In this document: positions 8,332 to 51,583 of the stretch, in pieces
Position numbering within the stretch: the stretch's first letter is position 1
Layout: every line of letters starts with the position of its first letter
DNA from: Ignavibacteriota bacterium
Lineage (GTDB): Bacteria; Bacteroidota; Ignavibacteria; UBA10030
Length of the DNA: 64,000 nucleotides
Direction: 5' to 3'
Assembly: GCA_963778945.1 (NCBI GenBank)
Contig: CAVZWL010000014.1
Coordinates: forward strand, 152,387-216,386
The notes under the pieces: model-generated
Databases searched by the model: none
What the model saw: only the letters and a program-made list of their open reading frames with translations
What the model was told of the DNA's origin: nothing
Made by a program: the position numbers and the translations under genes

Positions 8332-9031
8332 TCATAAGGTTTTGTTTAATCGCGTGCCGAAAATTGCCGTTCCTATTCTGATCATCGTTGCACCTTCTTC
8401 GATCGCCACTTCAAAATCATGCGACATTCCCATCGAGAGATGCTCCATAAAAATATTTTCAATTGCTTCTTTTTCAACTGCCCGCTTTACATCCGCCAAA
8501 CGCCTGAAAGAGGAACGTGCTTTTTCCGGATTATCTGAGAACGGCCCCATCGTCATCAAACCGCAGACCCTGAGGTTCCGGAATTTTGAAAGCAGCCGGG
8601 CAAGTTCGATTGTTTTTTCCGGAGCAACACCCTCTTTGGTCGCCTCGTCGGTTGTATGTACCTCAATAAAGACGTCCTGCACTCTCCCCGCTCGCTCGGC
8701 CCGTTTGGAGATTTCCTCGCCGAGTCGCGCATCATCGACCGAGTGAATGAGATGCACGTATTCGGCTATATATTTTACCTTGTTCGACTGAAGATGGCCG
8801 ATAAAATGCCAGCGGAACGAAGCATCACTCAACCCGTTTTTTTTTCAGGTTCAATTCCTGAACATAATTTTCACCGAAATCATAAATACCGCACTCTACC
8901 GCTTGCCTTATACGATCCGGCGAAACAGTCTTTGAAACGGCAATGAGCTGAATTTCGCCGCTCTTGCGGCCGCATCTGCTGCAAGCCATTTGGATGCGTT
9001 CGCGCAAGCTTCGTATATTCTCAGCAATCAT
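8332..9031 (-). CDS. yggS: YggS-family PLP homeostasis protein, split by one frameshift
   Basis: The N-terminal piece (8825..9031, ..GENYVQELNLKKK) and the C-terminal piece (8332..8832, SFRWHFIGHLQSNK..MGMSHDFEVAIEEGATMIRIGTAIFG) join across a T9 run at 8837-8845. Confidence 0.8.
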
Positions 9032-9174
9032 TTTTTATCATAAAAATTAAATGTACTCCAATAATCGGCGAAAATCAATGAAGTCCGGCTTGGCTTCAAA
9101 TCATTGTTCTGTTTTCTTGACTTACACTCTGGATTTTATTTTATTATGGTATAAAGAGTCTAAAGGCGAGTTGC

Positions 9175-10590
9175 ATGTCTCATTACGATGATTTCGACGA
9201 TAACGAGTCCCATCCGCAGTCTTCCGAGCAATCAGAAGAAGCTGTTCGGCGTTTTCGCGAACTTATTAAAACCGGACAGAAAGATATCAACAATCCGGAT
9301 GCCCTGGAAGAAATCATTCAGTTTTATTTTTTTCACGAAAAATTCGACGAAGCGCTCATGTACGTCGAAAGGCTTCTTTCGTTTCAGCCTTTCAATTCGG
9401 ACGCACTGCAGCGCAAAGGCATGATTCTGAACAATCTGACCCGCTATGAAGATGCGCTCGAATGTTTCAAACGCGCGATAAGCCTGAATCCGGCCGATAC
9501 TGAAATTTATGTCAATCAGGGAATCGCATTTGATAACGTCAACAAAGTCGAAGAAGCAATGGCATCTTTCGACAAGGCTATCGCACTCGACCCGATGCAC
9601 AGTGATGCACTGTTTCACAAAGCAGTAACGCTGGAAAAAGTAGAAAAATTTGAAGAAGCGATCAATTTATTCAAAAACGTGCTGCATATCGATCCGGAAC
9701 ATCCTGAAGTCTGGTACGAAATGGGATATTGCTACGATTATATGGACAAACCGGAGGACTCCATACGCTGCTATGATGAACATATCAACCGTGATCCGTT
9801 CAATTTTAATGCATGGTACAACCGGGGTATCGTCCAGAATCGAATCGGAAAATTTCAAGAATCTATTGCGAGCTATGAATACGCCCTTGCCATCAAAGAA
9901 GACTTTCCTTCTGCATTATTCAACATGGGAAACGCCTATGCCAACCTGGGCAAATTGCAAGAGGCAATAAAATGCTTTAAGGCGACGATCGAATTTGATC
10001 CCAAGGATTATGCTGCATGGCACAATCTTGGAAATGCCTACGAAGAAATGCAGCAATATACGGATGCTATTTTCCATTACTCTCAGGCACTTCGATATAA
10101 TGCAGAACATCACGAATCGTATTTCGGAAGAGGATGCTGCTATGACGCCCTGGGAAAGCTGCCGGAAGCATTGAAAGACTATCGAAAGGCCGCCAGTTTG
10201 CAGCCTTCATTTCCCGAGTATTGGTATGCCTGTGCTGATGCGGAATACAACTCAGACCATAGAGATATTGCGCTTCAATATTATGAAAAAGTGACTCAAT
10301 TGGAGCCAAAGAACTATGAAGCATGGTTTGATTATGGAGACACATTGGTCGAAACCGGGAATTATAAGGGCGGTATTATCGCACTTGAACAGTCAATCAA
10401 GTTGAACCAAAAGTTCGGTCTGTCCCATTTTAGCAGGGCAAAAGCTCTTGCCGGATTGGATCGATTTGAAGAAGCCGCGAATGAATTTTCCGCTTCATTT
10501 AAAATTTCACCCGAATTACGAAGTGAGTTTTTAGCTATTTTCCCGAAGCTTGCTTCATGGCGCTGGTTTATGAAATTTATCAATCGTTAG
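9175..10590 (+). CDS. Tetratricopeptide (TPR) repeat protein
   Basis: Intact 471-aa ORF with about 11 successive 34-aa A/Y/F-patterned repeats (for example ..ALECFKRAISLNPADTEIYVNQGIAF..). Confidence 0.8.
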   Translation: MSHYDDFDDNESHPQSSEQSEEAVRRFRELIKTGQKDINNPDALEEIIQFYFFHEKFDEALMYVERLLSFQPFNSDALQRKGMILNNLTRYEDALECFKRAISLNPADTEIYVNQGIAFDNVNKVEEAMASFDKAIALDPMHSDALFHKAVTLEKVEKFEEAINLFKNVLHIDPEHPEVWYEMGYCYDYMDKPEDSIRCYDEHINRDPFNFNAWYNRGIVQNRIGKFQESIASYEYALAIKEDFPSALFNMGNAYANLGKLQEAIKCFKATIEFDPKDYAAWHNLGNAYEEMQQYTDAIFHYSQALRYNAEHHESYFGRGCCYDALGKLPEALKDYRKAASLQPSFPEYWYACADAEYNSDHRDIALQYYEKVTQLEPKNYEAWFDYGDTLVETGNYKGGIIALEQSIKLNQKFGLSHFSRAKALAGLDRFEEAANEFSASFKISPELRSEFLAIFPKLASWRWFMKFINR

Positions 10591-34227: not shown

Positions 34228-35532
34228 CTATCGTTTTATTCCGCCGTGAACCGGGGTTATTCCGTTTTTCCGGCGGGTCTCCCAGTCCCGAACGAACAGA
34301 ACAATCAAAGCCGATGTAGGCACAGCGATTAAGAGGCCGACAACTCCGAGAAAATACATGAAAACCAGCAACGAGAGAATAAGCAGAAGCGGATGCAGTC
34401 CCACTTTATTGCCGACAATTTTCGGAGAAAGAAATACTACCTCGAGAATGTGAAGAAAACCGATCGAGCCGACTGCAAATGCCAGTTTTAGCAGAGCCGG
34501 CGGATCGCTGAAAAGTGCAGATATGGATGAGAGAAAGAGAATAGCTCCCAGGCCAAAATAGGGAATAAGATCGAATACAGCGCCAAGCAGGCCGAGCAGT
34601 AAAGCATACTTGATGCCAATGATGGAAAAAAGAATTGCAATGATAGTACCCTGAACACAGGCGACAAGCAGCACTCCTCTGAGATAATGTCCTACAAGTT
34701 CGTCTGCTTGAGCCATAAGATCGGCTATTCTGTCACGGTTATGACGCGGGAAAAGCATTTTGAACCTGTGCGTAATTTTATGGAAATCGGTAAGAAAATA
34801 AAACGTCAGGAAAGGAATGATGGCAATGTAGAAAATCTGAGTAATAAATCCGCTGATGCTGCTCATCACCGTACCAAGACCAGCTAACACAGCTTTGAGG
34901 ATATCTTCAAAACGCGGCGTCAAATGGCTTGCGAATGAATTGCGCAATTCCGTCGAACTAATGCCGTATCGTTCCAAGATGACCACAAGTTTGCTGTTCC
35001 ATAACGCATCGCTGTATTCATTCGTCAGCTTTGCAAGTGATTCCAGCACCCCTTCAAACTGAGTTAATGCCAGAGGAAGCACAAAAAATATGATCAAAGT
35101 AATTCCCGAAAGAAACAGCAGTATAATAACCAAGGAACTCACCCAGCGCGCTATTTTCCTCTGCGTCAGCCAATCGACGACCGGATTGAGCGTGTATGCA
35201 AAAATGAAAGAAACAAGAAAGGGAACGAGAATAGGCGAGATTGAGTCGATAAACCACAATGCAAACAGCACAATACCGAGCCACATTAAATTGCGCGCCA
35301 GAATATATCGGCGCAAGGGATAGAGAAGAAACAAAAGTGCGCCGAGAACGAGAAAAGGAGAAACGATCGAATGGATCGTATAGATAAGCACAAGGAGCAA
35401 GAGAACCCCCCCCACGAGCAGCACGATCTCGATCCTGCCGAGTGAAGCAAAGACGGAATCCCACTTCAAATCCTTAAGCTGATCCTCCTCTGCCGCCCTC
35501 TCTATCCCCTTCTTAGGTTTCTTTGCGGACAT
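34228..35532 (-). CDS. AI-2E family transporter (PerM/UPF0118-type permease)
   Basis: Intact 434-aa polytopic membrane protein with ..LLGAVFDLIPYFG.. and a topology typical of the family. Confidence 0.75.
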   Translation of the reverse strand: MSAKKPKKGIERAAEEDQLKDLKWDSVFASLGRIEIVLLVGGVLLLLVLIYTIHSIVSPFLVLGALLFLLYPLRRYILARNLMWLGIVLFALWFIDSISPILVPFLVSFIFAYTLNPVVDWLTQRKIARWVSSLVIILLFLSGITLIIFFVLPLALTQFEGVLESLAKLTNEYSDALWNSKLVVILERYGISSTELRNSFASHLTPRFEDILKAVLAGLGTVMSSISGFITQIFYIAIIPFLTFYFLTDFHKITHRFKMLFPRHNRDRIADLMAQADELVGHYLRGVLLVACVQGTIIAILFSIIGIKYALLLGLLGAVFDLIPYFGLGAILFLSSISALFSDPPALLKLAFAVGSIGFLHILEVVFLSPKIVGNKVGLHPLLLILSLLVFMYFLGVVGLLIAVPTSALIVLFVRDWETRRKNGITPVHGGIKR

Positions 35533-36003
35533 TTATCGTATCTCCTTGGCAGCGATTCCGGAATGGCCAAACCCCCCCGCACCTCGCTGTGATTCATTCA
35601 ATGTTTCCGTTTCCTTCCAAGTCACTCTGCTGTAACGTGCGATAACCATCTGCGCAATGCGGTCGCCTCGGCGAACGACAAATGGCTTTCTTCCGAAATT
35701 GGTTAAAATAATTTTTACCTCTCCGCGATAGTCGGAATCGATCGTTCCCGGAGCATTGAGAATACCGATTTGATGCTTCACCGCGAGTCCGCTGCGGGGA
35801 CGGATCTGTGCTTCAAATCCTTGCGGCAATTCCATGCTGAATCCGGCAGGGATCAGAACTGTTTCACCCGGCGGAATATCCATAACTTCCTTGACATCAG
35901 CACAGACATCCATACCGGCAGAACCCTCTGTTGCATAGGAAGGCAGCGGAAGGTCCGTCTGTTCCGGGTTCGTTCGCATAATTTTTACAACCACATTTTC
36001 CAT
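35533..36003 (-). CDS. dut: dUTP diphosphatase
   Basis: ..[49 protein letters not shown]. Confidence 0.9.
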
Positions 36004-36080
36004 GAAAACCTATCCTTTTTCGGAAACGCCTGACCAAATGAATCTCGGCTTTTTCGATTACCGAAAATAAAACTTCTTCC

Positions 36081-37391
36081 TTAAAATTGGTAAACGAAAC
36101 TCACTTTCGGCTCAATTCGTTTCTGAGATACATATTCACCATTGAGCAGCGTCCATGTCCATTGATAGACGGTCGATACAATCATAAACGATACAGGCTT
36201 GTATCCGACTTCTGCGTAGAGAAGAGAGTTTTCATCAAGAGTAAAGAAACTGCCTATATTTTTTTTATCATAGCCGCCGTTGAGTACTACCGAGGGTATC
36301 ACATCCGGAATATCGAGCACAGCGTGGAAGAAACCGGCATTCTTGACACCGACAGGCGCTTGATAATTGCCTATAATTTTGAACGTATTCAAGATACCGA
36401 TAACGAGCGAGCCGTAATTACCCTGATTTTTCGTAACAGTTGTAAGCGAATCGGCTTTGCTTCTAAAAGAATTGCCTACAACCGTGAACCTGTCCAGCTC
36501 ATACAAAGCATTGAAGTAAGAAGGAATAAACTGATCGCCGTTAAACTGCCGTTCGTACTTCGCGTTTACGGTCATCAAACCCATTCCCGAAAAACGGAAA
36601 TCAATTCCCACGGCTGCCCCGTTCCCATAATTGACGATCTTTGCGTAGTCGAAAAAAAGCGTCGATTTCACGGTCTTGTATGCCAGAAGAGGCAATCCAG
36701 CATCGAAACCGTAGATGGACATTGCGTTGCCTATTAAAATATTGCCGTTCGACGGGTCTACCGCAACATCTGCATTCTGCGCACGATCGGTGACATAGGT
36801 CGCACCGATTTCAAAATTATTGACAACAGGAATTTTTTCGAGAGTGGTCAATTTCAGCGGCTTGACATATCCACGCACGCCTGTAATTCCGGCGTGGGCA
36901 AGATCGCTGGTCATCGATTCGATTCCAAACTGATTGAAATTCAGATCAAGTTCCATTCCGGTTTTTCGTAAATCGTAGCTGGAGGAATTCTGATATCCTT
37001 CCATGATAAAACCGTGTCCCAATAATGCATTATCCAATTCTCCGACGCGAACATATAAAGGGGCTCCCTTCTGTGCCCAGCGTGCGTAACGTATGAGCCT
37101 AAGATAATCCGAGAATGAATTATAGTCGGGTCTCAATTTTCCATTGGAGTCGAATCGAAGGTTGACATCCAAACCGATCCCGAAATTACCGAATGCAACC
37201 TCGGGTTCAAAATTGACAAGGTAGTATGCCTGGCCGTCTATGAATGTAGCTCCAAGACCTACCGGAACAACACCGCTGCTCGCTGCAGCTGCCGCAGCTT
37301 GTTCCTGCGGCTGGGCAATGGTGACTCCAGCCTGCAGCAACAGGCAGGCGACTACATATATCATCGTTCGCTGCATTTTCATTTTTTTCAT
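36081..37391 (-). CDS. Putative outer-membrane beta-barrel protein, family not recognised
   Basis: Signal peptide MKKMKMQRTMIYVVACLLLQAGVTIAQP. There is an alternating aromatic/polar beta-strand pattern, and the terminal residues are ..VSFVYQF (the C-terminal Phe typical of OMPs). Confidence 0.5.
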   Translation of the reverse strand: MKKMKMQRTMIYVVACLLLQAGVTIAQPQEQAAAAAASSGVVPVGLGATFIDGQAYYLVNFEPEVAFGNFGIGLDVNLRFDSNGKLRPDYNSFSDYLRLIRYARWAQKGAPLYVRVGELDNALLGHGFIMEGYQNSSSYDLRKTGMELDLNFNQFGIESMTSDLAHAGITGVRGYVKPLKLTTLEKIPVVNNFEIGATYVTDRAQNADVAVDPSNGNILIGNAMSIYGFDAGLPLLAYKTVKSTLFFDYAKIVNYGNGAAVGIDFRFSGMGLMTVNAKYERQFNGDQFIPSYFNALYELDRFTVVGNSFRSKADSLTTVTKNQGNYGSLVIGILNTFKIIGNYQAPVGVKNAGFFHAVLDIPDVIPSVVLNGGYDKKNIGSFFTLDENSLLYAEVGYKPVSFMIVSTVYQWTWTLLNGEYVSQKRIEPKVSFVYQF

Positions 37392-37404
37392 CCTTTATAA
37401 TTGG

Positions 37405-37953
37405 TTAAACAGCAAATAGAATCCTGCATATAAACAATGCTCCCAGCATACCGAAGAGATCTGCAATAAGACCGGCCGGAACAGCATGCCGTGTATTTTT
37501 AATTTGAACAGCGCCGAAATAGACGGCAAGGACATAAAAAGTCGTTTCCGAGCTTCCGTACATCGTAGACGCAAGAACGCCGATAAAAGAATCCGGTCCG
37601 TGTACTTTCATCAATTCCGCCATAATACCGAGCGATCCGCTTCCGGAAAGAGGGCGCATCAACGCCATTGGCAGCGCTTCTGCCGGAAGTCCTATAATGT
37701 TTGTGACAGGAGAAATCGCCTTAACCAGCAGATCCATAGCTCCACTCGCTCGAAACATACCTATTGCAAATAACATCGCTACAAGATACGGAATAATCCG
37801 TACCGCTGTTGCAAATCCTTCTTTTGCGCCTTCGATAAAGGATTCATATACTTTGACTTTCCTAACCGCGCCCCATACAAGAAAGATAAGAATCATCAGC
37901 GGAATAGCTGTGACAGCGATCAGGTTTATGATATTTTTGAAAAATTCAATCAT
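37405..37953 (-). CDS. Nucleoside-recognition (Gate) domain membrane protein, SpmB-like
   Basis: 182-aa, 4-5 TM protein with ..MALMRPLSGSGSLGIM.. It is translationally coupled (ATGA overlap) to the SpmA-like gene. Confidence 0.7.
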   Translation of the reverse strand: MIEFFKNIINLIAVTAIPLMILIFLVWGAVRKVKVYESFIEGAKEGFATAVRIIPYLVAMLFAIGMFRASGAMDLLVKAISPVTNIIGLPAEALPMALMRPLSGSGSLGIMAELMKVHGPDSFIGVLASTMYGSSETTFYVLAVYFGAVQIKNTRHAVPAGLIADLFGMLGALFICRILFAV

Positions 37954-38945
37954 TGTCTTCCGCTGTCGTTTATTTCTTTCTTTTCTTTATCGATTCTGTA
38001 ACGCGGCAGTTTTTGAAGGAATTTCGATGCTGTCACACCTGCAACAGTCGCACACAATGCGCCGAAAATCGATGTACCGATAATGATCCCGGGATTTGCC
38101 GAACCCGATGCAGCCCGAACGGCAATAGCCGTAGCAGGAATAAGAATCAGTCCACCCGTATTGATAGCAAGAAATGTCACCATTGCGTTGGTCGCAGTGC
38201 CTGGCTTCGTATTGAGCGAATTTAACTCTTCCATCGCCTTGAGACCCAGCGGAGTTGCGGCATTATTAAGCCCGAGCATATTTGCCGCCACATTCATAAT
38301 GATGGAACCGATTGCCGGATGATCCGGCGGGATATCCGGAAATATTTTTTTTGTAAGCGGCGCAAGCATTTTCGAAAGCAACTGCACAAGTCCTGCCTCT
38401 TCCGCAATTTTTATCAATCCCAGCCATAAAGCCATCACACCAACCAGCGCCAGCGCTATTTCGACTGCAGTCGCAGCAAAATCAATCGCGGCTTGCGTCA
38501 CTGCACGAAGTTTCACAAAGTGGATCGGCTCAAAAATGATTTCGGCGAGTGCGTTTTTTTTATCTTCAGCGAATTGAAGCGAAACAATATGTCCGGGAAG
38601 TTCCCCCTTTGACGAACCGCTTTTCGCCATGGCCTGCCAGATGATCGGAGAAGATTCTGATAGGACAAGCACTGCTTTTCCATTGGACGAGACGAAAGCA
38701 GGCTGTTTCACCGTATCGTTTTGACTGCTTCGATCTGCAATACCGTAGAATTTTCTCAATACCGCTCCTGAGATAATCAGATCTCCTTCTGCCTTTGCTG
38801 TTCCAGTGCAGATTTCTTTTGAACGGAAAGAAATCTGCAGGGGCAAACCGTTCCTGTACGTATTGTTCAGTTCATCGTACAAATCGTTTCCTGCCGCTGC
38901 AAGCAAAGCTAGAACAATGAGCATCCACCAGATATGATTCAACAT
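37950..38945 (-). CDS. Nucleoside-recognition (Gate) domain membrane protein, SpmA-like, with a roughly 125-aa insertion after TM1
   Basis: ..ALALVGVMALWLGLIKIAEEAGL..NMLGLNNAATPLGLKAMEEL..AINTGGLILIP.. The segment at about residues 20-145 is non-membrane and has no family that I recognise. Confidence 0.65.
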   Translation of the reverse strand: MLNHIWWMLIVLALLAAAGNDLYDELNNTYRNGLPLQISFRSKEICTGTAKAEGDLIISGAVLRKFYGIADRSSQNDTVKQPAFVSSNGKAVLVLSESSPIIWQAMAKSGSSKGELPGHIVSLQFAEDKKNALAEIIFEPIHFVKLRAVTQAAIDFAATAVEIALALVGVMALWLGLIKIAEEAGLVQLLSKMLAPLTKKIFPDIPPDHPAIGSIIMNVAANMLGLNNAATPLGLKAMEELNSLNTKPGTATNAMVTFLAINTGGLILIPATAIAVRAASGSANPGIIIGTSIFGALCATVAGVTASKFLQKLPRYRIDKEKKEINDSGRQ

Positions 38946-39218: not shown

Positions 39219-40313
39219 TTATACTGCTTTCCGAACATCATCAATACTGAGAATTTCATAAAGGGTTGTACGTTGAGAAGGCACAAAACCGGATTCGCGG
39301 ATGAGCGATCTGCATTCCTCGACGCTCGTCTTATTGACAAACTTTGCCGAAGCATGAACGTTTTCTTCCGCCAAAACCCCGCCGAAATCATCCGCTCCAA
39401 AGTGAAGCGATATCTGTCCGATTTTTTTCCCCTCGGAAAACCACGATCCCTGTATATGCCTGAAGTTATCGAGATAGATACGCGATATGGCAATCATTTG
39501 AAGATAACGCGCCGGCGAGGCATAGTGCGGTATAATTTTTTCCAGCGGTGTATTGCCGGGTTTGAACGACCACGGAATAAACGCTGTAAAGCCGCCTGTC
39601 TCGTCCTGTAGACAGCGTAAAGCCTCCAGGTGGGTCATAATATCCTCGTCGGTTTCCAGATGCCCGTACATCATCGTAGCGGTCGTTTTATACCCAATTC
39701 CATGCGCAATTCGCATAACTCGGAGCCAATCGGCAGAAGTTCCCTTTTTACTGCTGATTTTCTTTCGAACGCTGTCGGAGAGTATCTCCGCTCCGCCGCC
39801 CGGCAGGGAGCGCAGTCCTTTCCCCCATAATTTTTCCAATACGGTCTCAATGCTGAGGCCGGACACTTTCGACATGATTAAAATTTCAGAGGTCGAGAAG
39901 AAATGCGGAAATATCTGCGGAACCTCATTGATTGTCCGTTCGACAAGCTCAAGATAATAATCAAACGGCAAATCGGGATTCACGCCTCCCTGAAGAAGAA
40001 CGGTCGTCGTTCCATTCCGGGCCGCATCTTTGAATTTTTCGATCATGTAATCCACAGTATGGGTGTAGACGCCTTCTTCTCCTGGATGACGATAGAACGC
40101 ACAGAAAATACAATCGACGGTGCAGACATTCGTATAATTCGGATTTGTATCAAGCACGTACGTCACATACGGTTTCGCGTTATTTCTAAAACGAATCTCG
40201 TTCGCCAAACCGCCAAGATCGAGTAATTCCGCATTGCGGAGAAGAAAGACTCCTTCATCTTTTGTAATCCGAACATTCTCTCGAATTTTTTTGGATATTT
40301 CTGCAACCGTCAT
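39219..40313 (-). CDS. mqnC: Radical-SAM futalosine-pathway enzyme, best read as cyclic dehypoxanthine-futalosine synthase MqnC
   Basis: Intact 364 aa with ..NPNYTNVCTVDCIFCAFYR (CxxxCxxC) ..LPGGGAEIL..TTATMMYGHLETDEDIMTHLEALRCLQDETGGFTAFIPWSFKPGNT. I recall the AFIPW pattern as MqnC-like rather than MqnE-like. The MqnC versus MqnE choice is from memory. Confidence 0.7.
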   Translation of the reverse strand: MTVAEISKKIRENVRITKDEGVFLLRNAELLDLGGLANEIRFRNNAKPYVTYVLDTNPNYTNVCTVDCIFCAFYRHPGEEGVYTHTVDYMIEKFKDAARNGTTTVLLQGGVNPDLPFDYYLELVERTINEVPQIFPHFFSTSEILIMSKVSGLSIETVLEKLWGKGLRSLPGGGAEILSDSVRKKISSKKGTSADWLRVMRIAHGIGYKTTATMMYGHLETDEDIMTHLEALRCLQDETGGFTAFIPWSFKPGNTPLEKIIPHYASPARYLQMIAISRIYLDNFRHIQGSWFSEGKKIGQISLHFGADDFGGVLAEENVHASAKFVNKTSVEECRSLIRESGFVPSQRTTLYEILSIDDVRKAV

Positions 40314-40431
40314 AGATTTACCTCAAGAGAACATATTGAGATGTGCAAGAGGGCTCATTCTTTTTCCCTCGAAGGAGAGATGAGAAAAATAAATGCACCC
40401 GTTTTCCATATCCCAAATTTTGTATTCTGTA

Positions 40432-41229
40432 CTAAATATTTACAGTATACCCTGCCGCCTTTAATTCTTTCATCAATTCAAATCCGGCTTCTTCCAGTTT
40501 GACCACAATCCGCTTAACACTCACACCCGGTATGTTGTCTGGAAAACTCACGTCCGATTTGCATAATATGCAGACATGGCCCGCTCCCAATTTCCCAACC
40601 AAATGGCCTATTTCAAACATCGCATAACCCAGATCGTCTTCGTTCAGAACAAAATAGGCGAATCGTATATCGGCACTTTCCTGAAAGGCATTAAACGAAA
40701 TCATCGTCCCATGTTGTCTTTCTATCAGAACCTCTTCAATTCCAATTTCCAACAAAAAATGCGCCAGCTGGATGTAGAGCGGACTGCTTTTCTCTCCGAT
40801 AATATAAACAGTGCGCGCAACAGCAGCGGCCGCTTGCGTTTTTTCGGTCTTGGGCGGAGGCTTTAGCACGCGGACACCCTCCGAAACGTTTTGTGCTGAA
40901 TGCTGGTTCTCCCGCGATTCCTGTCCGTCTGCAGTTGTCATCTCCGGAGAGGATTTAAGTTTAACATACAATTCATTGATCGAATGAAGGATCAGAAGTG
41001 CAGATACCTGAAAAAAATTGGATCCATTTTTATCGCCTAATATTTTGTTTTTATAGGGGATTCCGATAGGACCGGAGAGTTCCAGAATTTCGAGGCATGC
41101 TTTTCGCCACCCCAAATATGTATTTTGGAGGCGTGCATTATATCCGGAAAAATCAAATCCTCCCTGGGGGGCAAGTCTGCCCCCTGCCTCAATAAGCTCC
41201 TCAAATCTTTTAAGAATATGCTCGGACAT
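40432..41229 (-). CDS. TIR-like (Cap12/PycTIR-type, COG4271-like) domain protein with an unassigned helical N-terminal domain
   Basis: Intact 265-aa ORF. The C-terminal roughly 125 aa read TVYIIGEKSSPLYIQLAHFLLEIGIEEVLIERQ..IRFAYFVLNEDDLGYAMFEIGHLVGKLGAGHVCILCKSDVSFPDNIPGVSVKRIV..ELKAAGYTVNI. This follows the pattern I recall for the TIR-like domain (..FAivLlTpDD..FElGyfiGkLGr.rVc.L....lPSDi.Gv..). The N-terminal roughly 95 aa are helical, followed by a P/Q/A-rich linker. The ATG is 4 nt after the mqnE-mqnA stop. Confidence 0.65.
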   Translation of the reverse strand: MSEHILKRFEELIEAGGRLAPQGGFDFSGYNARLQNTYLGWRKACLEILELSGPIGIPYKNKILGDKNGSNFFQVSALLILHSINELYVKLKSSPEMTTADGQESRENQHSAQNVSEGVRVLKPPPKTEKTQAAAAVARTVYIIGEKSSPLYIQLAHFLLEIGIEEVLIERQHGTMISFNAFQESADIRFAYFVLNEDDLGYAMFEIGHLVGKLGAGHVCILCKSDVSFPDNIPGVSVKRIVVKLEEAGFELMKELKAAGYTVNI

Positions 41230-41233
41230 GTCT

Positions 41234-43096
41234 TTAAACTTTTTCCAACACTTCCAAATCTATTAAAATTTTCTCGAATTCTGCAATTGCATCGAGCTCT
41301 CGTCTGCCGAGACGGAAATTAAATCCCTCCAGGTATTCTTCACATTCCGGTTTTGTAAGCCCGATACGATGCGCATGTAACGCGCCTGTTTCCCCGTAAT
41401 TTTGTTCTGCCTTTTTAAGTGATGCCTGCAGGATTTCGGCCAATTCCAGTTTCACATCCGGATTCATCGTCTTCTGAACAGCCCAGATGGCAAAGACGAA
41501 TGGAAGCTGTTTCCATTCGTACCATTCCGCGGCAAGATCATAGATTAATTCGAAACCGGCAAGACCATGCTTTTGAGCATGGAGAGCCTCATCGCCGATT
41601 AAAAGTACAGCATCAAATGTCCTATAGTCATTCACACCGGAATTCATTCGGCGGAAGTGCGCCTGTACTCCGTATTTTTTTTCCAACAGCACTCTGAGAA
41701 GCTGAACGGAGGTTGCCGTATCATCGATAATGCCGACGGTTCTGCCCTGCAGGCCTTGCCATCCATGATTCGAAAAAAGCATAACGCTTTTCACTTGATC
41801 ACGCGTTGCAATACAGTAATCAAGAGGTTCCAAATGCTTCTGCTGCTGCAGATAATCGACCAAAGAAAAAAGACCGGCATCCAGCTGCCCCCTTGAGGAC
41901 AATACACCCATACGGCGGGGAGAAACAGGCAAGATCTTGAACTGCCGTTGTTCGATGTTTTCATAGAACGGCACGGAATTCAAATACGGAATTTTTCCTA
42001 CGACATTTTTGCCGTGCAGATTCAACGGATTATAATAAATATCTCTTTCCACCGGAATTTTTCCAGCATCGCGAATCATTTTAATAATTTGTTCTTTTGC
42101 CAGAACTGATGGACTTGTCGCACCTGCATCATGTGCGATTCGTTCGCCTCCCACCGTTCCATCCATATCATCTGCACCGAAATTCAAAGCGATCGATGCA
42201 ACTTCTTCCGTCAGCATGACCCAATAGGCCTTGATATGCGGAAAGTTATCAAGCATCAAACGTGAGACGGCAATCATTTTCAGATCGTCAAGAGCCGAGG
42301 TCGGCTGGTCCGGCGGCTTGATGCCAGTCGTCCCCGGCTGGAATGCTAATGGTATAAAAGAAAGAAAACCCTGGGTCTCATCCTGCAATTCCCGAAGTTT
42401 GCTGAGATGATAAACACGTTCTTCTTTTGTTTCAATGTGGCCGTATAAAATCGTCGCATTCGTCGGAATACCTAAGCTGTGAGCAGTACGATGAATGTCC
42501 AGCCATTTCTCAGATCCTATTTTCTGATGGAAGAGTTCCGTTCTCACGCGTTCTGAAAACACTTCAGCTCCGCCGCCGGGCATCGTTCGCAGTCCGGCTG
42601 CCTTCAGTTGCCGCAAAACATCTTCAATCGGAATTTTAAATTTCTTATGAAAATAATCGATTTCAACCGCAGTGAATGCTTTGATATCTGCATGTGGAAA
42701 TTTTTCGCGGATTCGGCTCAGCATATCCAGGTAATATTCCCACTTCCAGTCTGGATGCAGCCCGCCGGTGATATGTACTTCCTGGATATCGGAGGTAAGC
42801 TTGGCGAGAATTTCTTCTATCGTCATTTCGTATGCTTTCGCTTCGTTTTGCTGCACCGCAAAATCGCAAAACTTGCATGATAAGACGCAGATGTTCGTCG
42901 GTTCGATTTTTTGATTCAGGACGAAGTAAATTGCATCGCCGCTTTTTTGTTTTTGAACAAAATGCGCCATCTTGCCGAGCGAAATAACATCGTTTGTTGC
43001 GAAAAGAGTCAATCCGTCTTCAAGCGATAATCGATCCCCCTTCTGAACTTTTTGCCAGACGGGCTCAAGATTTGTATCCCGGAAATGTATCTCCAT
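41234..43096 (-). CDS. mqnE-mqnA: Fusion protein: aminofutalosine synthase (MqnE, radical SAM) N-terminal half plus chorismate dehydratase (MqnA) C-terminal half
   Basis: The N-terminal half has ..EPTNICVLSCKFCDF..HITGGLHP..IKAFTAVEI..MPGGGAEVF..ILYGHIETKEERVYHLSKLRELQDETQGFLSFIPLAFQ..NFGADDMDGTV..IRDAGKIPVERD. The C-terminal half has VGKIPYLNSVPFY..LDAGLFSLVDY..LLIGDEAL..LPFVFAIWAV (MqnA hallmark, with no SPCPND MqnD motif). The start is set at MEIHFRD (43096). Confidence 0.75.
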   Translation of the reverse strand: MEIHFRDTNLEPVWQKVQKGDRLSLEDGLTLFATNDVISLGKMAHFVQKQKSGDAIYFVLNQKIEPTNICVLSCKFCDFAVQQNEAKAYEMTIEEILAKLTSDIQEVHITGGLHPDWKWEYYLDMLSRIREKFPHADIKAFTAVEIDYFHKKFKIPIEDVLRQLKAAGLRTMPGGGAEVFSERVRTELFHQKIGSEKWLDIHRTAHSLGIPTNATILYGHIETKEERVYHLSKLRELQDETQGFLSFIPLAFQPGTTGIKPPDQPTSALDDLKMIAVSRLMLDNFPHIKAYWVMLTEEVASIALNFGADDMDGTVGGERIAHDAGATSPSVLAKEQIIKMIRDAGKIPVERDIYYNPLNLHGKNVVGKIPYLNSVPFYENIEQRQFKILPVSPRRMGVLSSRGQLDAGLFSLVDYLQQQKHLEPLDYCIATRDQVKSVMLFSNHGWQGLQGRTVGIIDDTATSVQLLRVLLEKKYGVQAHFRRMNSGVNDYRTFDAVLLIGDEALHAQKHGLAGFELIYDLAAEWYEWKQLPFVFAIWAVQKTMNPDVKLELAEILQASLKKAEQNYGETGALHAHRIGLTKPECEEYLEGFNFRLGRRELDAIAEFEKILIDLEVLEKV

Positions 43097-43098
43097 GG

Positions 43099-43510
43099 CT
43101 ATTTCCAAAATTCTTCCCATTGTGAATGGACTTTATTCACGACATCGGGATCCATAACAAGAGGATCCGGATATCCTTTTTTCCACGTTGCATCTATTCC
43201 CATAACACCGGAATAGAGCGGCGAAATTCCCAGCATTTTTTGATTCGTAAAATATACATCGCGCTGGCAGTCAAATCGCGTAAATATGCCCCAAATCGAA
43301 TTCACTTGATCTCTCACGATCGACATCTTCGCTTACTACCGCAATGATGCTGAAAGCCTGAAGTTCCTCGCTCCGGAGTAATTTTTGCAGAACCGGCCTT
43401 CCGCTGTTTTGTGATCCGTTCGATGTTGAAACGCTTGAGCGAACTTTGACGATAAGCAGCGTTTCTTCCCACGATTCCGCATCCACGATTCTTTTATCGG
43501 ATGCGATCAA
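43099..43510 (-). CDS. UbiD-family C-terminal-domain fragment (about 137 aa) with one internal frameshift. It is either a duplicate remnant or a separate small gene.
   Basis: ..ETLLIVKVRSS..AFSIIAVVSEDVD then (I)VRDQVNSIWGIFTRFDCQRDVYF..GVMGIDATWKKGYPDPLVMDPDVVNKVHSQWEEFWK. This repeats the region already present at the end of the upstream full-length UbiD homologue. Confidence 0.55.
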
Positions 43511-43564
43511 CTTGGAGATATGAGAACGCTTCAGACCAGATATCCTTTTACTGGTCTCAGTTGT

Positions 43565-44920
43565 TTATCTTTTCCCGTGTTTTCGCGTTGCATCGATAAT
43601 CATTTTACTGCCCAGTTCCATTTTAAAACTCGTAAAGTCGAGCGTATCCAGCGGGACATTCGGAATCATGACAAAGTCTAAATGCGGATCGAAATTTGCA
43701 TGAATTTCTTTTAGAACGGAAGACCAGTCTTTCGGATCGATATCTTCCGAGACAAGAACCATGCATTTTGTCAGAGATAATTGACTTGTCCCCAGTAACC
43801 CAAGAGCGGTCTTCATCGCTTCCTTCTTATATCGTGCTTCCGTCGAAACAACGAGCAGGTTATGAAAACCAGCTTCATAGTATGCCCAAAGCGAACGAAC
43901 CTCCGAATGCAGAAGCTTGATCAGCGGAGAAAGAATTTGCTGCGATGCATCGCCTAAAAATTTATCTTCCATCGGAGGAATGCCCACAACAGTTGCAGGG
44001 TAAACAGCATTGTTGCGATGCGTAAGAGCTTTGATGTGGAAGACCGGAAAAGGGGCTGCATGGGAGTAATGGCCGAAATGATCGCCAAACGGTCCCTCTT
44101 CTCTCCGCTCGCCGGGGTTCACATATCCCTCCAGTACGAATTCAGCCTGAGCCGGAACATCAATGGCGATGTTTTTTCCGCGTGTGAATGGAATTCTTCT
44201 GCTTCTTAAAAATGCGGCGAACATCGCCTCATCGATACCTTCCGGTAAAGGTGCAATCGTCGCAAGCAGCAATGCCGGATCGGTTCCAAGCGCAACGGAA
44301 ACCGGCAATGATTGATTCATCCGTTCTGCACGATAATAATGGAATCCTCCGCCTTTTTGAATTTGCCAATGCATGCCGGTTGTTGCCGCATCATACACGT
44401 GCATCCGATACATTCCAATATTTCGCTTCCCATCCGCCGGATCGTATGTGACAACCTGTCCCTGCGTAATAAATCGACCTCCATCGCCGGGCCAGCAGGT
44501 TTGAAGCGGCAGCAAATTGAGATCGGGCGGCAGGTCAAGAGACTTGCGAGAATCCAGCTGCAGTTTTATGTGTTTGAGCACGAAGCGCTTTAAAAAGAAT
44601 CGATCGATTCTTCCAGAGTTCCGACGGTTTCGGCGGTAGCAATTTTTCAGCAAAACCTGACAAGTTCTTCGCCAATCTGTACCGGATGCCGGCCTAAAGC
44701 GAGTTCTATCCGGCGTTCTGAAGCATAGACATTGATAGCGAGAGGAAAACGAGCACCTTTTACATTTTCAAAAAGAAGAGCCTGTCTGCCTTCACGAAGA
44801 GCTCGCACGGCAATTTCAGTTATTTCGAGATACGGATCGACCTACTTGCTTGATTCGTCTGAGTTCACCGATAGACTCCAGATACCGAACAAATTCGCCA
44901 AGCGCCGGAAACGTTTGCAT
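43565..44920 (-). CDS. UbiD-family decarboxylase (menaquinone late-step, MqnL-like), about 3 frameshifts in the N-terminal 110 aa
   Basis: [66 protein letters not shown] (hand translation), then ORF 43565..44653 with ..[56 protein letters not shown]. Confidence 0.8.
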
Positions 44921-45473
44921 TATTCCAAATCTCCGGAACGCCATCCTTTTGATTCCCGCACACCGAGAACACCGAGCAATTTTGCGATATATGCATCGAT
45001 ATATTCTTGAACAGAATGCGGAACAAAATAAAGAGGCGGAGAAATCGGCATAATCATACCGCCGTAAGCGGAAATTTTTGCGCATTGTTCGAGCGTAACG
45101 GTTGAGAGCGGAGTTTCCCGTAATGCAGAGAATCAATCGATATCGTTCTTTTAAAGCGACCTGAGCCGTACGCGTAATGAGCGTATCCCCTATCCCCGAT
45201 GCTATTTTCCCTACCGTTGAGATCGAACATGGAAGAATCACCATCGCATCGAATCTGTTGGAGCCTGACGCAGTGAGGAGCCGTTAGGTCATCATCTGAA
45301 AATTGTCTCTTTGCAAAAGAAGCGAATTCTTTTTCCGAAATGCCGAGTTCTTCCTTGACGACCACTTTTCCCCATTTGCTCATAATGAGAAATTTTTCTG
45401 CGTCGCATTGCTTCAGAAATTCCTGCGCAAAGATAACCCCGGAGGATCCGGTCACTCCGACAATAATCCTCAT
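44920..45473 (-). pseudogene. ubiX: UbiX-family flavin prenyltransferase (MqnM-like), at least 3 frameshifts
   Basis: MRIIVGVTGSSGVIFAQEFLK.., ..[37 protein letters not shown].., ..[31 protein letters not shown].. are spread over three frames (hand translation). The stop TAA overlaps the UbiD-like ATG (TAATG). Confidence 0.75.
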
Positions 45474-46313
45474 GGGAAATATACTCCTGCCAGCACCATT
45501 GCAAGAACTGCAAAACCGATAACAGCGTTTATTTTAAAGAACGCCAATTCGACATCTTCCGCTTTTCGATGCTCCAGATATAAAAGATATCCGGAAAAAA
45601 GCAGCAGAGGCAGCGCCGCTACAGCGCGGATTTCCATAGTAAAAAGACAGACCAGTACGGCAAAGGATAAAACATGCAGGCAGGCTGAGATTTTTAAAGC
45701 ATGTTTTCTTCCGAACCGCGAAGTAAAGGAATAAAGCTTCTCACCCCGATCAAATGCTTCATCGAGCGTTGAATAGATCACATCAAAACCGGTGGCCCAA
45801 AAAATCATAAAGAGCGAAAGCATCAATCCGGGAAGCATTCCATTAGTTGTGTTTTTTACTGCAAACCATCCTCCCAGCGGAGCCATCGATAATCCGAAGC
45901 CCACGCCAAAATGTGCAAACGGCGTGAAGCGTTTCATGTAAGGATAGATTAGAAAAATGATAAGGGGAACCGGCGAGAGAGCAAAACAAAAAGGCGATAT
46001 CAATTTTGCGCTGAGTTCATAAAGTGCAAGGCTTCCGACAAGAATAACAAAAGCACCGCCGAGAGGCATCCTTCCGCTTGGCAGTTCCCTGTTTGTAGTC
46101 CGCGGATTGCGTTTATCAATATGCCGGTCGATTATACGATTAAGAGCCAAAGCCGTCGTTCGAGCCCCAAGAGCTGCGGTGAGAATAAGCGCGATCAGTC
46201 TGAACGGCGGCGGTTTTGGGAGAAGCTAAAAAGACGCCGGCAAAGATCAGCGGCAAAGAAAAAAGCGTATGCTCGATCTTGATAAAATCCGTTATGCTTT
46301 TTATTTTTTTCAC
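45470..46313 (-). CDS. UbiA-family aromatic prenyltransferase (MqnP-like), one frameshift near 46205
   Basis: VKKIKSITDFIKIEHTLFSLPLIFAGVFLAS.. then ..ALNRIIDRHIDKRNPRTTNRELPSG (NxxxDxxxD-type motif) ..DVIYSTLDEAFD. The GTG start at 46313 is 10 nt after the metG stop, and there is a 4-nt overlap with ubiX. Confidence 0.8.
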
Positions 46314-46323
46314 ACTGCTCCTC

Positions 46324-48396
46324 TTATTGAACAACCGAGCCAGCCGGCATGTCGCCGCCCGGTTCAATAAATTTCAAATTCCCGCTCGTATCGCCTGCCG
46401 CTAATATCATCCCCTGTGATTCTTGTCCCATAATTTTTGCAGGCCGAAGATTTGCGACAAGAACGACTAATTTTCCGATCAATTCCTCGGGTGCATATGT
46501 TTTTGCAATACCCGCAAGAATCTGCCGCTGTTCAGATCCAAGGTCAACCTGGAGTTTTAAAAGTTTTTCGGATTTCAGAACTTTTTCCGCTTTGAGAACT
46601 TTTGCAATGCGTAAATCGATCTTTGAAAAGTCCTCGATCGTTATGGCCGGTTTAACCGGCACAAAGCCGGGTTTCAGCCCCGTTTCATGACCACCTTCCA
46701 GAAATTTGATAATTTCTTCGATACGGACATCCTCTATTTTTTGAATCAATATTTCAGGTTGAGCCAGAACATGGCCGGACTCAAGCAGAATTTCTGCTGC
46801 AGAATCCCAGCCGTCCTGATACAACGTCGAATCCATCTTCAGAAGTTTCCATATCTTTTCAGATGTAGAAGGAATAACCGGGGCCAGTAAAATTGCCAGC
46901 GTGCGGACTACTTGCAGCGAGACGTAGAGTGTCGATGCGCATTGTTCCGGGTCCGTTTTTTTTGTTTTCCACGGCTCGCTGTCGTTGAAATATTTATTGG
47001 CGGCCCGTGCAAGATTCATAGTTTCCATCAAACCGTCGCGGAACCTGTACTGCTCATAGTATTGCCCGACTGCACCCGGTGATTCCTTGATTTTAAGAAT
47101 CATTTCTGTATCGAGTGAACTCAATTTGCCGGGATGAGGAACTTTGCCTTCGAAATTTTTTTCTGCAAACGCAATGGTACGATTGATAAAATTACCTGCG
47201 ATATCTGCCAGTTCATTATTGATGCGTGCTTGAAAATCTTTCAAATAGAAGTCACTGTCGCTTTTTTCCGGCAAATTGACAGCGAGTGCATAGCGCAGCA
47301 TGTCGGCGGGAAAATGCTTTAAAAAATCTTGTACGTCGATTCCCCATCCCCGGCTCTTTGAAAACTTCTGCCCTTCAAAATTTAAAAATTCGTTGGCAGG
47401 AACGTTTTCAGGCAGGACATATTGTTCTTTCCTGCCGTCATTCCAAGCCATAAGCATGGCTGGAAAAACTATACAATGGAATACGATATTGTCCTTGCCG
47501 ATAAAAGGCACATATTTTGTCTCAGGATCGAGCCAATATTTTTTCCATGCGTCGGGTGTTCCTTTTCCGGCTGCCCATTCCTTGGCGGATGAAATATATC
47601 CGAGCACTGCATCGAACCAGACATAAATGACCTTGTGCTCAAATCCTTTTACCGGGACAGGTACCCCCCATTTAAGATCTCGGGTCACTGCACGGTCCTG
47701 CAATCCGTCTTTGAACCACCCTTCACAGTACCGCAAAACATTTTCTTTCCATGGATCCCGGGCATCGGCATCTTTCAAATATGCTTGCAACCTTGTTTGA
47801 TACCTTCCGAGCGGAAAATACCAATGCAGGGTTTCGCGGACTATCGGCGTGCTTCCGCAAAGCTTGCACTTTGGATCTATCAAATCGATTTGATTCAGCC
47901 ACGTACCGCACGATTCGCATTGATCTCCCCGTGCCTGTGTTGATTTACAATTTGGACATGTTCCTTCAACATACCGATCGGCCAAGAAGAGAGAGTCCTT
48001 TTCGCAGAACAACTGCTGTTCCTTCTTTTCCAGAACAATGCCGTTCTTATGGAATTCTGTAAAGAATTCTGTCGTTGTTGCATAATGCAGAGGCAGAGAC
48101 GTACGGGAATAATTATCGAAGCTCATTTCAAATGCCTCAAAAACCGATTTATTTGCAGGATGATAGCGGTCGATAATGGCCTGCGGGGTTGTATTTTCTT
48201 TTTCCGCAGAGACAGTAATTGCGACCCCGTGCTCGTCTGATCCGCAAAGAAAGAGGACGTCGCGTTTCTTTAAACGTTGATACCGGGCATAGATATCTGC
48301 CGGGAGGTATGCGCCTGCAAGATGTCCGAGATGTAGATAGCCGTTTGCGTATGGCAAAGCGGCGGTGATGAGTATGCGCTTAAATTTTTCAGTCAT
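46324..48396 (-). CDS. metG: Methionyl-tRNA synthetase with a C-terminal tRNA-binding (Trbp111/EMAP-like) domain
   Basis: Intact 690 aa with ..PYANGYLHLGHL (HIGH), the zinc knuckle CPNC..CESCG, KFSKSRG (KMSKS) and the C-terminal ..LKLQVDLGSEQRQILAGI.. Confidence 0.95.
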   Translation of the reverse strand: MTEKFKRILITAALPYANGYLHLGHLAGAYLPADIYARYQRLKKRDVLFLCGSDEHGVAITVSAEKENTTPQAIIDRYHPANKSVFEAFEMSFDNYSRTSLPLHYATTTEFFTEFHKNGIVLEKKEQQLFCEKDSLFLADRYVEGTCPNCKSTQARGDQCESCGTWLNQIDLIDPKCKLCGSTPIVRETLHWYFPLGRYQTRLQAYLKDADARDPWKENVLRYCEGWFKDGLQDRAVTRDLKWGVPVPVKGFEHKVIYVWFDAVLGYISSAKEWAAGKGTPDAWKKYWLDPETKYVPFIGKDNIVFHCIVFPAMLMAWNDGRKEQYVLPENVPANEFLNFEGQKFSKSRGWGIDVQDFLKHFPADMLRYALAVNLPEKSDSDFYLKDFQARINNELADIAGNFINRTIAFAEKNFEGKVPHPGKLSSLDTEMILKIKESPGAVGQYYEQYRFRDGLMETMNLARAANKYFNDSEPWKTKKTDPEQCASTLYVSLQVVRTLAILLAPVIPSTSEKIWKLLKMDSTLYQDGWDSAAEILLESGHVLAQPEILIQKIEDVRIEEIIKFLEGGHETGLKPGFVPVKPAITIEDFSKIDLRIAKVLKAEKVLKSEKLLKLQVDLGSEQRQILAGIAKTYAPEELIGKLVVLVANLRPAKIMGQESQGMILAAGDTSGNLKFIEPGGDMPAGSVVQ

Positions 48397-49524: not shown

Positions 49525-51583
49525 TCAAAAAGCATGACCGACGCCGAGCTGAATTACTCCTGCAGCAACGGTTTCGGGAAAAAATTTCTTTTCGGTAATC
49601 CAAGCGTTCTCGCCGGCAGCATATGCATCGGGATCGAACACACGCATGCCGAAATCTATACGAATCGGACCGGCAATAGTATTATAGCGCAGGCCGAATC
49701 CTGCCGCCATGGCAATCTGTGAGAAGCGAACTCTCGAAGGTTTCGACCATACATTGCCTATATCATAAAAAAGGACAAACGATATTTTTTCCAAATCGAT
49801 AAAAGAGAAAGACCCTGCGTTTTTAAGAGGATTGAGCCGCGCCTCGAGACTGCCATCGAGAAATGCATCGCCTCCCTGATCATCCGTGCTGTCCACAAAC
49901 CCCAATGAGCGCGCCCTCCATCCGCGTACACTCCCGCTTCCTCCTGAAAAAAATCTATGAGTAAGCGGAACATCAATGGGCGATGAACCGTAAAGCACGG
50001 CAGCGCCAGCATTCCATTTGGTTGCCCAGATTATATCTCGTTTCCCATTCGGATCCCAGTACCACTGGCCAAGTACTGTTGCTTTTACATATTGTGAATA
50101 CGGAAGAATAATGCCAAGATCGCTGCCGAACATTCGCGGCAGCGTACCAGATTCCTCAAGAGATATCGACTGTAAAAATCCATCCGAAGGATAAAAAATA
50201 TCATTCCGTTTATCGCGTTGGAGTGTAACTGTAAGGATGGAATTGAGCTGCTTTGTATACGTACCGATGGTTGTATCGTGCTGAGCAGCGAGTGCCTTTG
50301 GGCTGCTGTACTCTAGAGTCCAATCATAATATGCTTTTGTGTAGGTAGCGGTTTGTGTTATGATTTCAAATTTCTGCTGCAGAACCGGCAAATAATATGT
50401 TGCTTCCTTATCGATGATCCCTGAAACAGTCCAGCTGAGGCTCGTATGATTATTGAGAAAAAGCGGCTGCAAAATTTGAAGAGAAAGATTTAATTTTGCA
50501 ACAAGAGAGCTGTCCCGCAGACCGGTTTGCGAAAAGAGCCTTTTGAACTGAATGTTAAAAATTGACTGGAGGTTTGCATCAAAGCTTATGGAAAAATCGC
50601 GCGCACTTCCAAAAAAATTTCTATTATTATAGCTCGCGCCCATAGAAACATTAAATGCATTGTTCTCGTCGTTGACGCCTATTTCCGGAGAAAGCTCTTC
50701 GAACAACCGCGTACGAACCAGTACATTTGTCGGAATGCTGCGGGATGCCGCTGCCGAAGAAGGAGTCACATTTTCGATTTTTGAAACATCAAAAATTCCG
50801 AGCCGGTTTAAATTCCTCTCGCTCTGGGTCTTTTTTTGTTCACTATAGAAATCCCCCTCCTGATAATCGAGATGCTGAAGAATTGTCGTCGAATCTATAT
50901 GAGCTCTGCGATGCCGTATCTTCCTGTATGCTAATTTTCCCGAATGTATACCTTGCACCCGGTGTATAAGCCAAGATAACGGCAAAATTATTGGTGGAGG
51001 CGTAGCGATGAGCATCGATTGTATCGACCCGCATATGGACATATCCGCTGTTGGCGAGCACAGAGATATCACGCCGGACTTCAGTCTCCAGATTGTCCAA
51101 AATAAACGGGTCATGCAGATGGAGCACAGGACTTGCGATAATGCTTTGCCGGACGTCATCCGGCAAAACGTCCAATCCTTTATAGACGATCGAATCGATT
51201 ATTGAGCGTCTGCCCTCCTTTATTGAAAACAATATGTCAATGGTACTGTGTTCTTTATCGACAACAAATATCGTGTCAATTTTCGCCTGGTAAAAGCCAT
51301 TGCTTTCGTAATACTTCTTGACCGCTAAATAATCTGAGGTAAAAAAGAGAGGATCAAAATATTCAGGTTTTTGACCGATCGATTCGCTGAGATGCGCATA
51401 TATATATTTCCAGAATCCCCAGGGGGATTTTCGCGTCTGCATCAATGAGAGGAGCTGATCCGACTTTATGCTGGTATTGCCGGTAAACCGAAGGTCTCCG
51501 ATTTCTAATTTTCCTGAATTTTCCTGTCCAAAAAGAAAACAGGAAAAAGCAAGAAATAAAAAAAAGGGCGATAAATACCGCAT
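49525..51583 (-). CDS. BamA/TamA-family outer-membrane protein (POTRA plus Omp85 barrel), one frameshift near 50900
   Basis: Signal peptide MRYLSPFFLFLAFSCFLFG and POTRA-like repeats in ORF 50843..51583. The barrel lies in ORF 49525..51159 and ends ..RFFSGGSGSVRGW..IQLGVGHAF. Confidence 0.75.

Follow-up and report, generated by a model that had tools for sequence, protein, structure and literature searches.

A divergent TIR-like protein of immune-type ancestry, putatively domesticated, resides in the futalosine operon of Ignavibacteria

Within a 64,000-nt stretch of contig CAVZWL010000014.1 from an Ignavibacteriota bacterium (hereafter the window), a gene that we call X lies inside an operon for menaquinone (MK) biosynthesis by the futalosine route and encodes a divergent TIR-like protein. 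Gene X (40432..41229, minus strand) is an intact 265-aa open reading frame (ORF) with its ATG at 41229 and its stop codon at 40432–40434, and its product combines a four-helix N-terminal domain, a low-complexity linker and a divergent TIR-like C-terminal domain. Directly upstream on the same strand lies an mqnE-mqnA fusion (mqnE/A, 41234..43120), which encodes aminofutalosine synthase (TIGR03700, 477.9 bits) joined to a PF02621 domain (residues 374–618); its stop codon (41234–41236) precedes the start of X by a 4-nt gap, the sequence reading “taa agac atg”. Downstream, a 118-nt spacer (40314..40431, minus) separates the stop of X from the ATG (40313) of mqnC (39219..40313, minus), the gene for cyclic dehypoxanthinyl futalosine synthase (TIGR03699, 441 bits). 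An Rfam search of the whole window and a promoter/terminator scan found no RNA family and no terminator-like site in this spacer, the promoter part relying on a sigma-70 consensus that fits Bacteroidota-type promoters poorly. Since more than 400 full-length homologs exist, the X ORF is not a chance reading frame. An initial annotation of the window had described this intact ORF with its 4-nt and 118-nt spacings between an mqnE-mqnA fusion and mqnC, and had seen no defence gene nearby; the ORF list, the sequence and the family matches agree with the former, and a scan of the neighbours of X likewise brought up no defence gene.

To define the anatomy of the protein, profile searches were combined with structure prediction. 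An AlphaFold2 model of full-length X, built from an 89-sequence alignment (mean predicted local distance difference test score, pLDDT, 77.6), shows a confident helical N-domain, a disordered linker and an alpha/beta C-domain. The N-terminal four-helix bundle (residues 1–98; 40936..41229, minus) was also modelled alone (pLDDT 89.6, predicted template modelling score 0.83) and carries the invariant motif GGF..SGYNARLQ..Y..WRK. It is followed by a P/Q/A-rich linker (residues 99–136; 40822..40935, minus) with pLDDT <50 throughout, and by the TIR-like domain (residues 137–265; 40435..40821, minus), a divergent PF10137 member recognized by Pfam, PADLOC, hhalign and weak Foldseek matches. Among relatives of X the linker varies from ~38 to ~250 aa and has a majority fraction of 0.49, compared to 0.76 and 0.73 for the two globular domains, and the N-domain is the most conserved part of the protein.

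The assignment of the C-domain rests on sequence profiles. PF10137, the TIR-like family of CAP12 and PycTIR, matches residues 142–240 with 26.2 bits (E = 8.7e-6), just over its gathering score of 24.7, and five PDC-S35 models in PADLOC match X (best 1.5e-17), whereas the PycTIR model reaches E = 0.0055 and the NCBIfam Cap12 models ~13 bits against a cut-off of 450. A sequence-profile search of the PDB returned a marginal Cap12 match (E = 0.25) in which the glutamate discussed below is aligned with that of Cap12 chain 9lmq, and the PHROGs match of X is a phage family of unknown function, phrog_16442. The initial annotation had proposed a C-terminal TIR-like domain and had named a PF10137 match as the support to look for; these scores, together with the family alignment described below, bear the domain call out. 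In the structure search, TIR-STING and the BtpA TIR are among the best weak Foldseek matches of the C-domain, but they stand level with CheY-like and other flavodoxin folds, and nothing in the PDB falls below E = 1e-3 for the full model, so that structure alone is insufficient for TIR identity. The N-terminal ~98 aa, which the same annotation could not name, match no Pfam family, and a PDB Foldseek search with this domain alone gives generic helical bundles (best E = 1.1).

A search for homologs of X returned 418 proteins, the best 120 of which (an identical entry left out) are full length and 51–84% identical to it; the named sources are Ignavibacteria or Bacteroidota metagenome-assembled genomes. 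Relatives score 36–121 bits against PF10137, the canonical member P0151 reaching 121 bits, and another canonical member, P0145, aligns with a PDC-S35 model over its whole length. Alignment of the main X clade to canonical members by hhalign (99.9%, E = 3.5e-36) extends over 231 columns and both domains, and X and the canonical members have the N-domain motif GG..GYN..Q..Y..WR in common. Searching the N-domain profile against 1.84e9 representative proteins yielded just 47 matches; apart from proteins of the mqn-embedded type, they comprise distant relatives in which the domain is partnered with canonical PF10137, the restriction endonuclease (REase) family DpnII-MboI, TIR_2/TIR-TM, TIR_2/ThsB_TIR or AbiJ/Abi_C. 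Among proteins from outside the window, P0140, P0147, P0158 and P0163 carry the X-type N-module fused to a DpnII/MboI-type nuclease, TIR_2 or AbiJ/Abi_C (HEPN-type). Judged from these fusions, the four-helix domain is an undescribed module, without a Pfam model, shared by effectors of conflict systems. Because the alignment covers both domains and the N-domain is joined to toxin-type effectors elsewhere, X descends from a defence-type family built as a helical module plus a toxin. The canonical relative P0151 occupies an accessory spot, with an N6-methylase-like gene adjoining it and transposases nearby.

The active site of X has been remodelled around a retained glutamate. In the PF10137-type TIR domain of SfSTING, the nicotinamide is stacked by F6, W33, F37 and L47, whereas the phosphodiester and ribose are contacted by S10, R78 and N80; catalysis is by E84, with D110 acting in trans (PMC9402430). 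By its spacing, R78-x-N80-x-x-x-E84 would correspond to the RQNVIFE motif of canonical members. The equivalent of E84 in X is Glu206 (codon 40612..40614, minus), which lies within an invariant MFE.GH motif and is aligned with the canonical NVIFELGY motif. Invariant residues of the C-domain comprise D199, Y202 and M-F-E206-x-G-H, and D199, M204, F205, E206, G208 and H209 are unchanged in 62/62 full-length main-clade proteins from any class of locus, including loci that lack the futalosine (mqn) genes. Four residues invariant in canonical relatives (H115, G116, R188 and N190) are all missing in X, where G145-E146 and L200/Y202 stand at the corresponding sites; the equivalents of R78 and N80, on the RARQN loop, fall within a 17-residue deletion in X, while the glutamate is retained. 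The Glu-centred site is still under constraint, but its build is not that of an NAD+ site any more. Activity of X as a canonical NADase is doubtful because the loop with the Arg/Asn contacts to NAD+ is deleted, though the catalytic Glu is kept. The beta-A loop differs from one sub-clade of X to another, and a single sister sub-branch (P0131, P0134 and P0137), the only one to have lost the glutamate, reads LMALGY, with alanine in its place; P0131 sits in a complete mqn operon.

To place X in its genomic setting, we surveyed 75 loci from GTDB species representatives. These share the backbone Omp85 – holB – methionyl-tRNA synthetase (MetRS) – [UbiA – UbiX – UbiD – MqnE/A] – X – [MqnC] – Amidohydro_2 – [MqnD-type PF02621] – UbiE/MenG – … – TatD, and in 37 complete loci and 12 truncated at a contig edge, out of the 75 species, X has mqnE/A on one side and mqnC on the other, with median gaps of 14 nt (mqnE/A to X) and 9 nt (X to mqnC). 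In a divergent sister branch (X 31–49% identical) the mqnE/A–X–mqnC trio is kept but its surroundings differ, being of an Iso_dh-side type in L076, L077 and L103 and unrelated in L080. The trio recurs in 15/15 metagenome loci of this branch whose flanks are long enough, and 3/3 loci picked from the MqnE/A side, independently of X, have X as well. Overall, X was found in 100% of mqnE/A-mqnC loci, across three flanking contexts. X is 31–58% identical, compared to 71–77% for MqnE and MqnC; across the lineages described here these two proteins keep to 66–77%, and X evolves much faster than its neighbours. X is an ancient, vertically inherited and syntenic resident of the operon and not a recent arrival. 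A recent landing of a defence gene was considered and rejected on the grounds of this deep synteny. Of the initial suggestion that X is an orphan immune effector landed in a core operon, the homology to defence families stands; a sporadic recent insertion is contradicted by the deep synteny, the purifying selection described below and the loss of the Arg/Asn contacts.

X is also retained where the futalosine genes are gone. In fourteen loci X comes after MetRS and every mqn gene is missing, often including the MqnD-type gene between Amidohydro_2 and UbiE; in four others the mqn genes are reduced to remnants, namely a stub of MqnA and a broken-up mqnC. An intact X is found in 13 of the 14 mqn-less loci and in 4/4 remnant loci; its presence is therefore not bound to that of the futalosine pathway, as that of a dedicated enzyme would be. 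In all, about 17–19 species have had futalosine genes (ubiA/X/D, mqnE/A, mqnC and mqnD) deleted, fragmented or replaced with X retained. In eight species a MenA-type prenyltransferase adjoins X, its best NCBIfam matches being 1,4-dihydroxy-2-naphthoate polyprenyltransferases, below cut-off. The gene for this 297-aa protein (~9000–10000 of the locus) takes the place of ubiA-ubiX-ubiD-mqnE/A in L002, L009, L012, L013, L015, L021, L025 and L030, and four of these loci (L002, L009, L021 and L030) still have a stub of mqnA and/or pieces of mqnC next to it. The MenA-type loci with remnants give the impression of an unfinished changeover, at the locus itself, from futalosine to classical menaquinone synthesis. 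On a MetRS tree the mqn-less and remnant cases occupy at least 4 separate positions (transitions), and two MenA groups each have a full-mqn sister (L014 and L011). The tree is midpoint-rooted, and since several mqn-less lineages are basal on it, the mqn-less state is possibly ancestral; the MenA-bearing groups with mqn remnants establish, however, that mqn loss does occur. Both menaquinone routes occur in the class, since according to a published report (PMC3362086) the type strain of I. album uses the classical men genes.

Furthermore, the ratio of nonsynonymous to synonymous substitution rates (dN/dS) of X is 0.10–0.29 in the mqn-less and remnant groups, compared to 0.075–0.10 in the full-mqn clade of the window and 0.03–0.12 for MetRS (Nei–Gojobori method, several pairs having high dS). 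X is under purifying selection after mqn loss, and its selected function would therefore not depend on the futalosine genes.

Several features of the window and of the wider locus accompany these observations. Upstream of mqnE/A in the same operon lie ubiA-, ubiX- and ubiD-type late-step genes (43102..46367, minus; Pfam matches), with MetRS further upstream of X beyond them. Compared to the intact orthologs of L035 and L001, the ubiA gene of the window has one frameshift, ubiX two and ubiD several in-frame stops, and an Omp85-family gene is frameshifted once (~50903–50940), whereas MetRS, holB, mqnE/A, X and mqnC are unbroken; the disruptions may be real pseudogenes or assembly errors. The X–mqnC spacer, 118 nt here, is ~117 nt in L001 and ~154 nt in L035, against a median of 9 nt in 35 other loci. 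Downstream, the clade formed by the window, L001 and L035 departs from the usual Amidohydro_2-mqnD-ubiE block and has other genes in its place: in the window (34228–38945, minus) these are two “Gate” nucleoside-recognition-domain proteins, an unannotated 436-aa protein, a dUTPase and an AI-2E-family transporter, and no mqnD or ubiE homolog was found anywhere in the 64 kb. The fusion of MqnE to PF02621 is present in all 120 best database matches to MqnE/A of the window (>=69% identity) and is a clade-wide trait; most loci have a separate PF02621 gene downstream, presumably mqnD. An uncharacterised Amidohydro_2 gene (PF04909; family F7, L003–L067, for example L099 9954–10877) is conserved on the opposite strand between mqnC and the mqnD-type gene and, like X and ubiE, is retained in many loci after mqn loss.

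Taken together, we favour, at slightly less than even confidence, the view that X is a repurposed (domesticated) immune-type protein, putatively a regulated N-glycosidase with a non-canonical substrate and a role separable from the futalosine genes. The proposed roles of the N-domain, of catalysis, of the substrate and in the biology of the cell are all computational. Briefly, X would be co-transcribed with mqnE/A and mqnC. Its N-terminal bundle, the module that in relatives goes with toxin-type effectors, would serve as a sensing or assembly element and, through the flexible linker, control self-association of the C-terminal TIR-like domain; this domain, with the invariant Glu206, may then cleave an N-glycosidic bond by hydrolysis in some nucleotide or nucleoside. 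Because the loop that bears the Arg/Asn contacts to NAD+ diphosphate and ribose is deleted, the substrate or binding mode is predicted to differ from that of the Cap12/PycTIR NADases.

A number of points weigh against the domestication view. Its point of reference, PDC-S35, is a computational candidate only, on which our literature search found no paper (nor did it find one on TIR-like proteins in futalosine operons). The surveyed loci were mostly found through X, making lineages without X invisible. For X, Foldseek does not separate TIR from other flavodoxin-like folds, and the persistence of the Glu-less P0131, P0134 and P0137 proteins in the operon hints that X may act in part without catalysis. 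Genes derived from defence are not typically fixed in ~100 species in strict synteny, and this fixation in itself does not point to any particular new role. Finally, the 100% co-location with mqnE/A-mqnC in three flanking contexts argues for some tie to the pathway, which domestication with a separable role leaves unexplained; for this reason the idea that X acts as a nucleosidase deserves experiment.

In its most tenable form, which we regard as unlikely but credible, that idea makes X a non-orthologous MTAN-like nucleosidase of TIR-like fold that removes adenine from aminofutalosine and, in addition, from 5′-deoxyadenosine or 5′-methylthioadenosine. The cluster encodes MqnA, MqnE, MqnC, MqnD, a UbiA-type prenyltransferase, UbiX/UbiD and UbiE, leaving the nucleosidase as the only futalosine step without a gene there, and the slot between two genes for radical S-adenosylmethionine (SAM) enzymes is occupied by X in every mqn locus. 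No MTAN or MqnB was detected with a validated E. coli MtnN query in the 64-kb window, where the initial annotation had likewise seen none, or in ~1.2 Mb of related loci; canonical MTAN is, however, widespread in bacteria, and it is this window and these ~1.2 Mb of loci that the search covered. A catalytic-type Glu is invariant in X, loss of the diphosphate-binding Arg/Asn fits a phosphate-free substrate, and some nucleotide N-glycosidases, MilB among them, have TIR-like folds (PMC9402430). Such an enzyme would still be useful after loss of the futalosine route because of a housekeeping action on radical-SAM/SAM-dependent products. Against it, the sister sub-branch with Glu replaced by Ala keeps its position in the operon, the beta-A loop differs between sub-clades, X diverges far faster than MqnE and MqnC, and a sensor-type N-domain with a variable linker of 38–250 aa is unexplained for a simple metabolic enzyme. 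Of the original proposal that X is the missing N-glycosidase of the pathway, the operon slot therefore remains, whereas the retention of X in ~17–19 species without futalosine genes and the Glu-less sub-branch speak against it. Were the nucleosidase reading correct, which we think improbable though worth pursuing, X would be the first TIR-like-fold enzyme of primary metabolism, a domesticated immune-type N-glycosidase replacing MTAN/MqnB in these Ignavibacteria, and the lost NAD+ diphosphate contacts may then reflect a switch to an unphosphorylated adenosyl substrate.

It is distinctly unlikely that X has remained a functional one-gene effector of the PDC-S35 type, acting in abortive infection or against phage and merely housed in, and expressed from, an essential operon, with an N-domain that senses infection and a TIR-like domain that depletes NAD+ or a related cofactor. 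Retention independent of the mqn genes is what would be expected of a defence gene, X diverges faster than its neighbours, and the full-length homology to PDC-S35, the N-domain common to AbiJ-, REase- and TIR-type effectors, the phrog_16442 match and the accessory setting of P0151 (N6-methylase-like gene, transposases) all point in this direction. The strict vertical inheritance and synteny of X across ~100 species at a dN/dS of ~0.1–0.2 nevertheless differ from the way defence genes come and go in patches, the scanned neighbourhood has no further defence genes, the presumed sensor domain is the most conserved part of the protein, and the R78/N80-type NAD+ contacts and the HG motif have been lost.

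The loss of canonical substrate-binding motifs would also fit if X were a non-catalytic adaptor or scaffold of general menaquinone biosynthesis, its tethered ends joining partners or binding an adenosyl or quinone intermediate for regulation, an explanation that we consider very unlikely. Only the mqn-embedded clade has the low-complexity linker with its great and variable length, Glu-less proteins are still found within the operon, and after pathway replacement X is often beside other MK genes (MenA–X in 8 species, X…UbiE in others). The invariance of D199, MFE206, G208 and H209 in the main clade, however, resembles that of an active site, no MK gene is left near X in L004, L007, L026, L043 or L058, and any binding partner is hypothetical. 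That X is a dedicated futalosine/aminofutalosine hydrolase with no other role is hardly credible, for although its operon slot and the missing pathway step fit, X outlives mqnE/A, mqnC and mqnD in at least 4 independent transitions, and a dedicated MqnB replacement was rejected because X is intact in ~17–19 mqn-lacking species with a dN/dS of 0.1–0.3 and an invariant motif, a rejection that holds unless a second futalosine cluster exists elsewhere in those genomes.

In bacteria, TIR-like NADase effectors are known as immune toxins that are mobile and of patchy distribution. In the case of X, a full-length relative of such toxins has long been fixed in a core biosynthetic operon, with a remodelled active site, a new linker and purifying selection, making X a clean candidate for the domestication of an immune effector within bacteria themselves. 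As the one unassigned gene in a futalosine cluster otherwise short of the nucleosidase step only, X also offers a directly testable biochemical hypothesis. In addition, the analysis defines an unannotated four-helix N-terminal module common to PF10137, TIR_2, REase and AbiJ-type effectors, and shows that within one bacterial class a MenA-type gene has repeatedly taken the place of the futalosine genes at the same locus.

Among known systems, MTAN (MtnN/Pfs) and MqnB, which have the PNP_UDP_1 fold, resemble X by functional analogy only: X occupies the operon slot of adenine or hypoxanthine release and belongs to a fold family that includes N-glycosidases, but it is TIR/flavodoxin-like, shows no sequence or fold relationship to these enzymes and is not strictly co-distributed with the futalosine genes. 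The TIR-like or nucleoside 2-deoxyribosyltransferase-like nucleotide N-glycosidases, such as MilB (hydroxymethylcytidine monophosphate, hmCMP, hydrolase), have an alpha/beta fold of the flavodoxin-like kind, in which helix alphaC bears the catalytic Glu, and substrates other than NAD+ (PMC9402430), yet they have no detectable sequence similarity to X and are devoid of its N-terminal helical module and linker. With Cap12 (TIR-STING) and PycTIR, X has the PF10137 domain in common, the catalytic Glu lying in a ..FE.G..G.LG motif. Cap12 and PycTIR effectors are cyclic-nucleotide-activated NADases; X differs from them in having no STING, SAVED or cNMP sensor domain and no equivalents of the NAD+ contacts R78 and N80, and no partner cyclase (CD-NTase or pyrimidine cyclase) was found in its window neighbourhood or conserved synteny. 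The closest counterpart is PDC-S35, which like X is a single-gene, two-domain protein (helical N-domain plus PF10137 TIR-like domain) and is homologous to it end to end. Compared to PDC-S35, X has acquired a low-complexity linker of 38–250 aa and a new conserved tail, LEE..L.KELKAAGY, and has lost the HG motif and the 17-residue RxRQN loop. In place of the accessory, patchy or defence-island context of such genes, X occupies a syntenic core locus (holB-MetRS-…-mqn) in 75 species, where it is fixed in a biosynthetic operon and vertically inherited.

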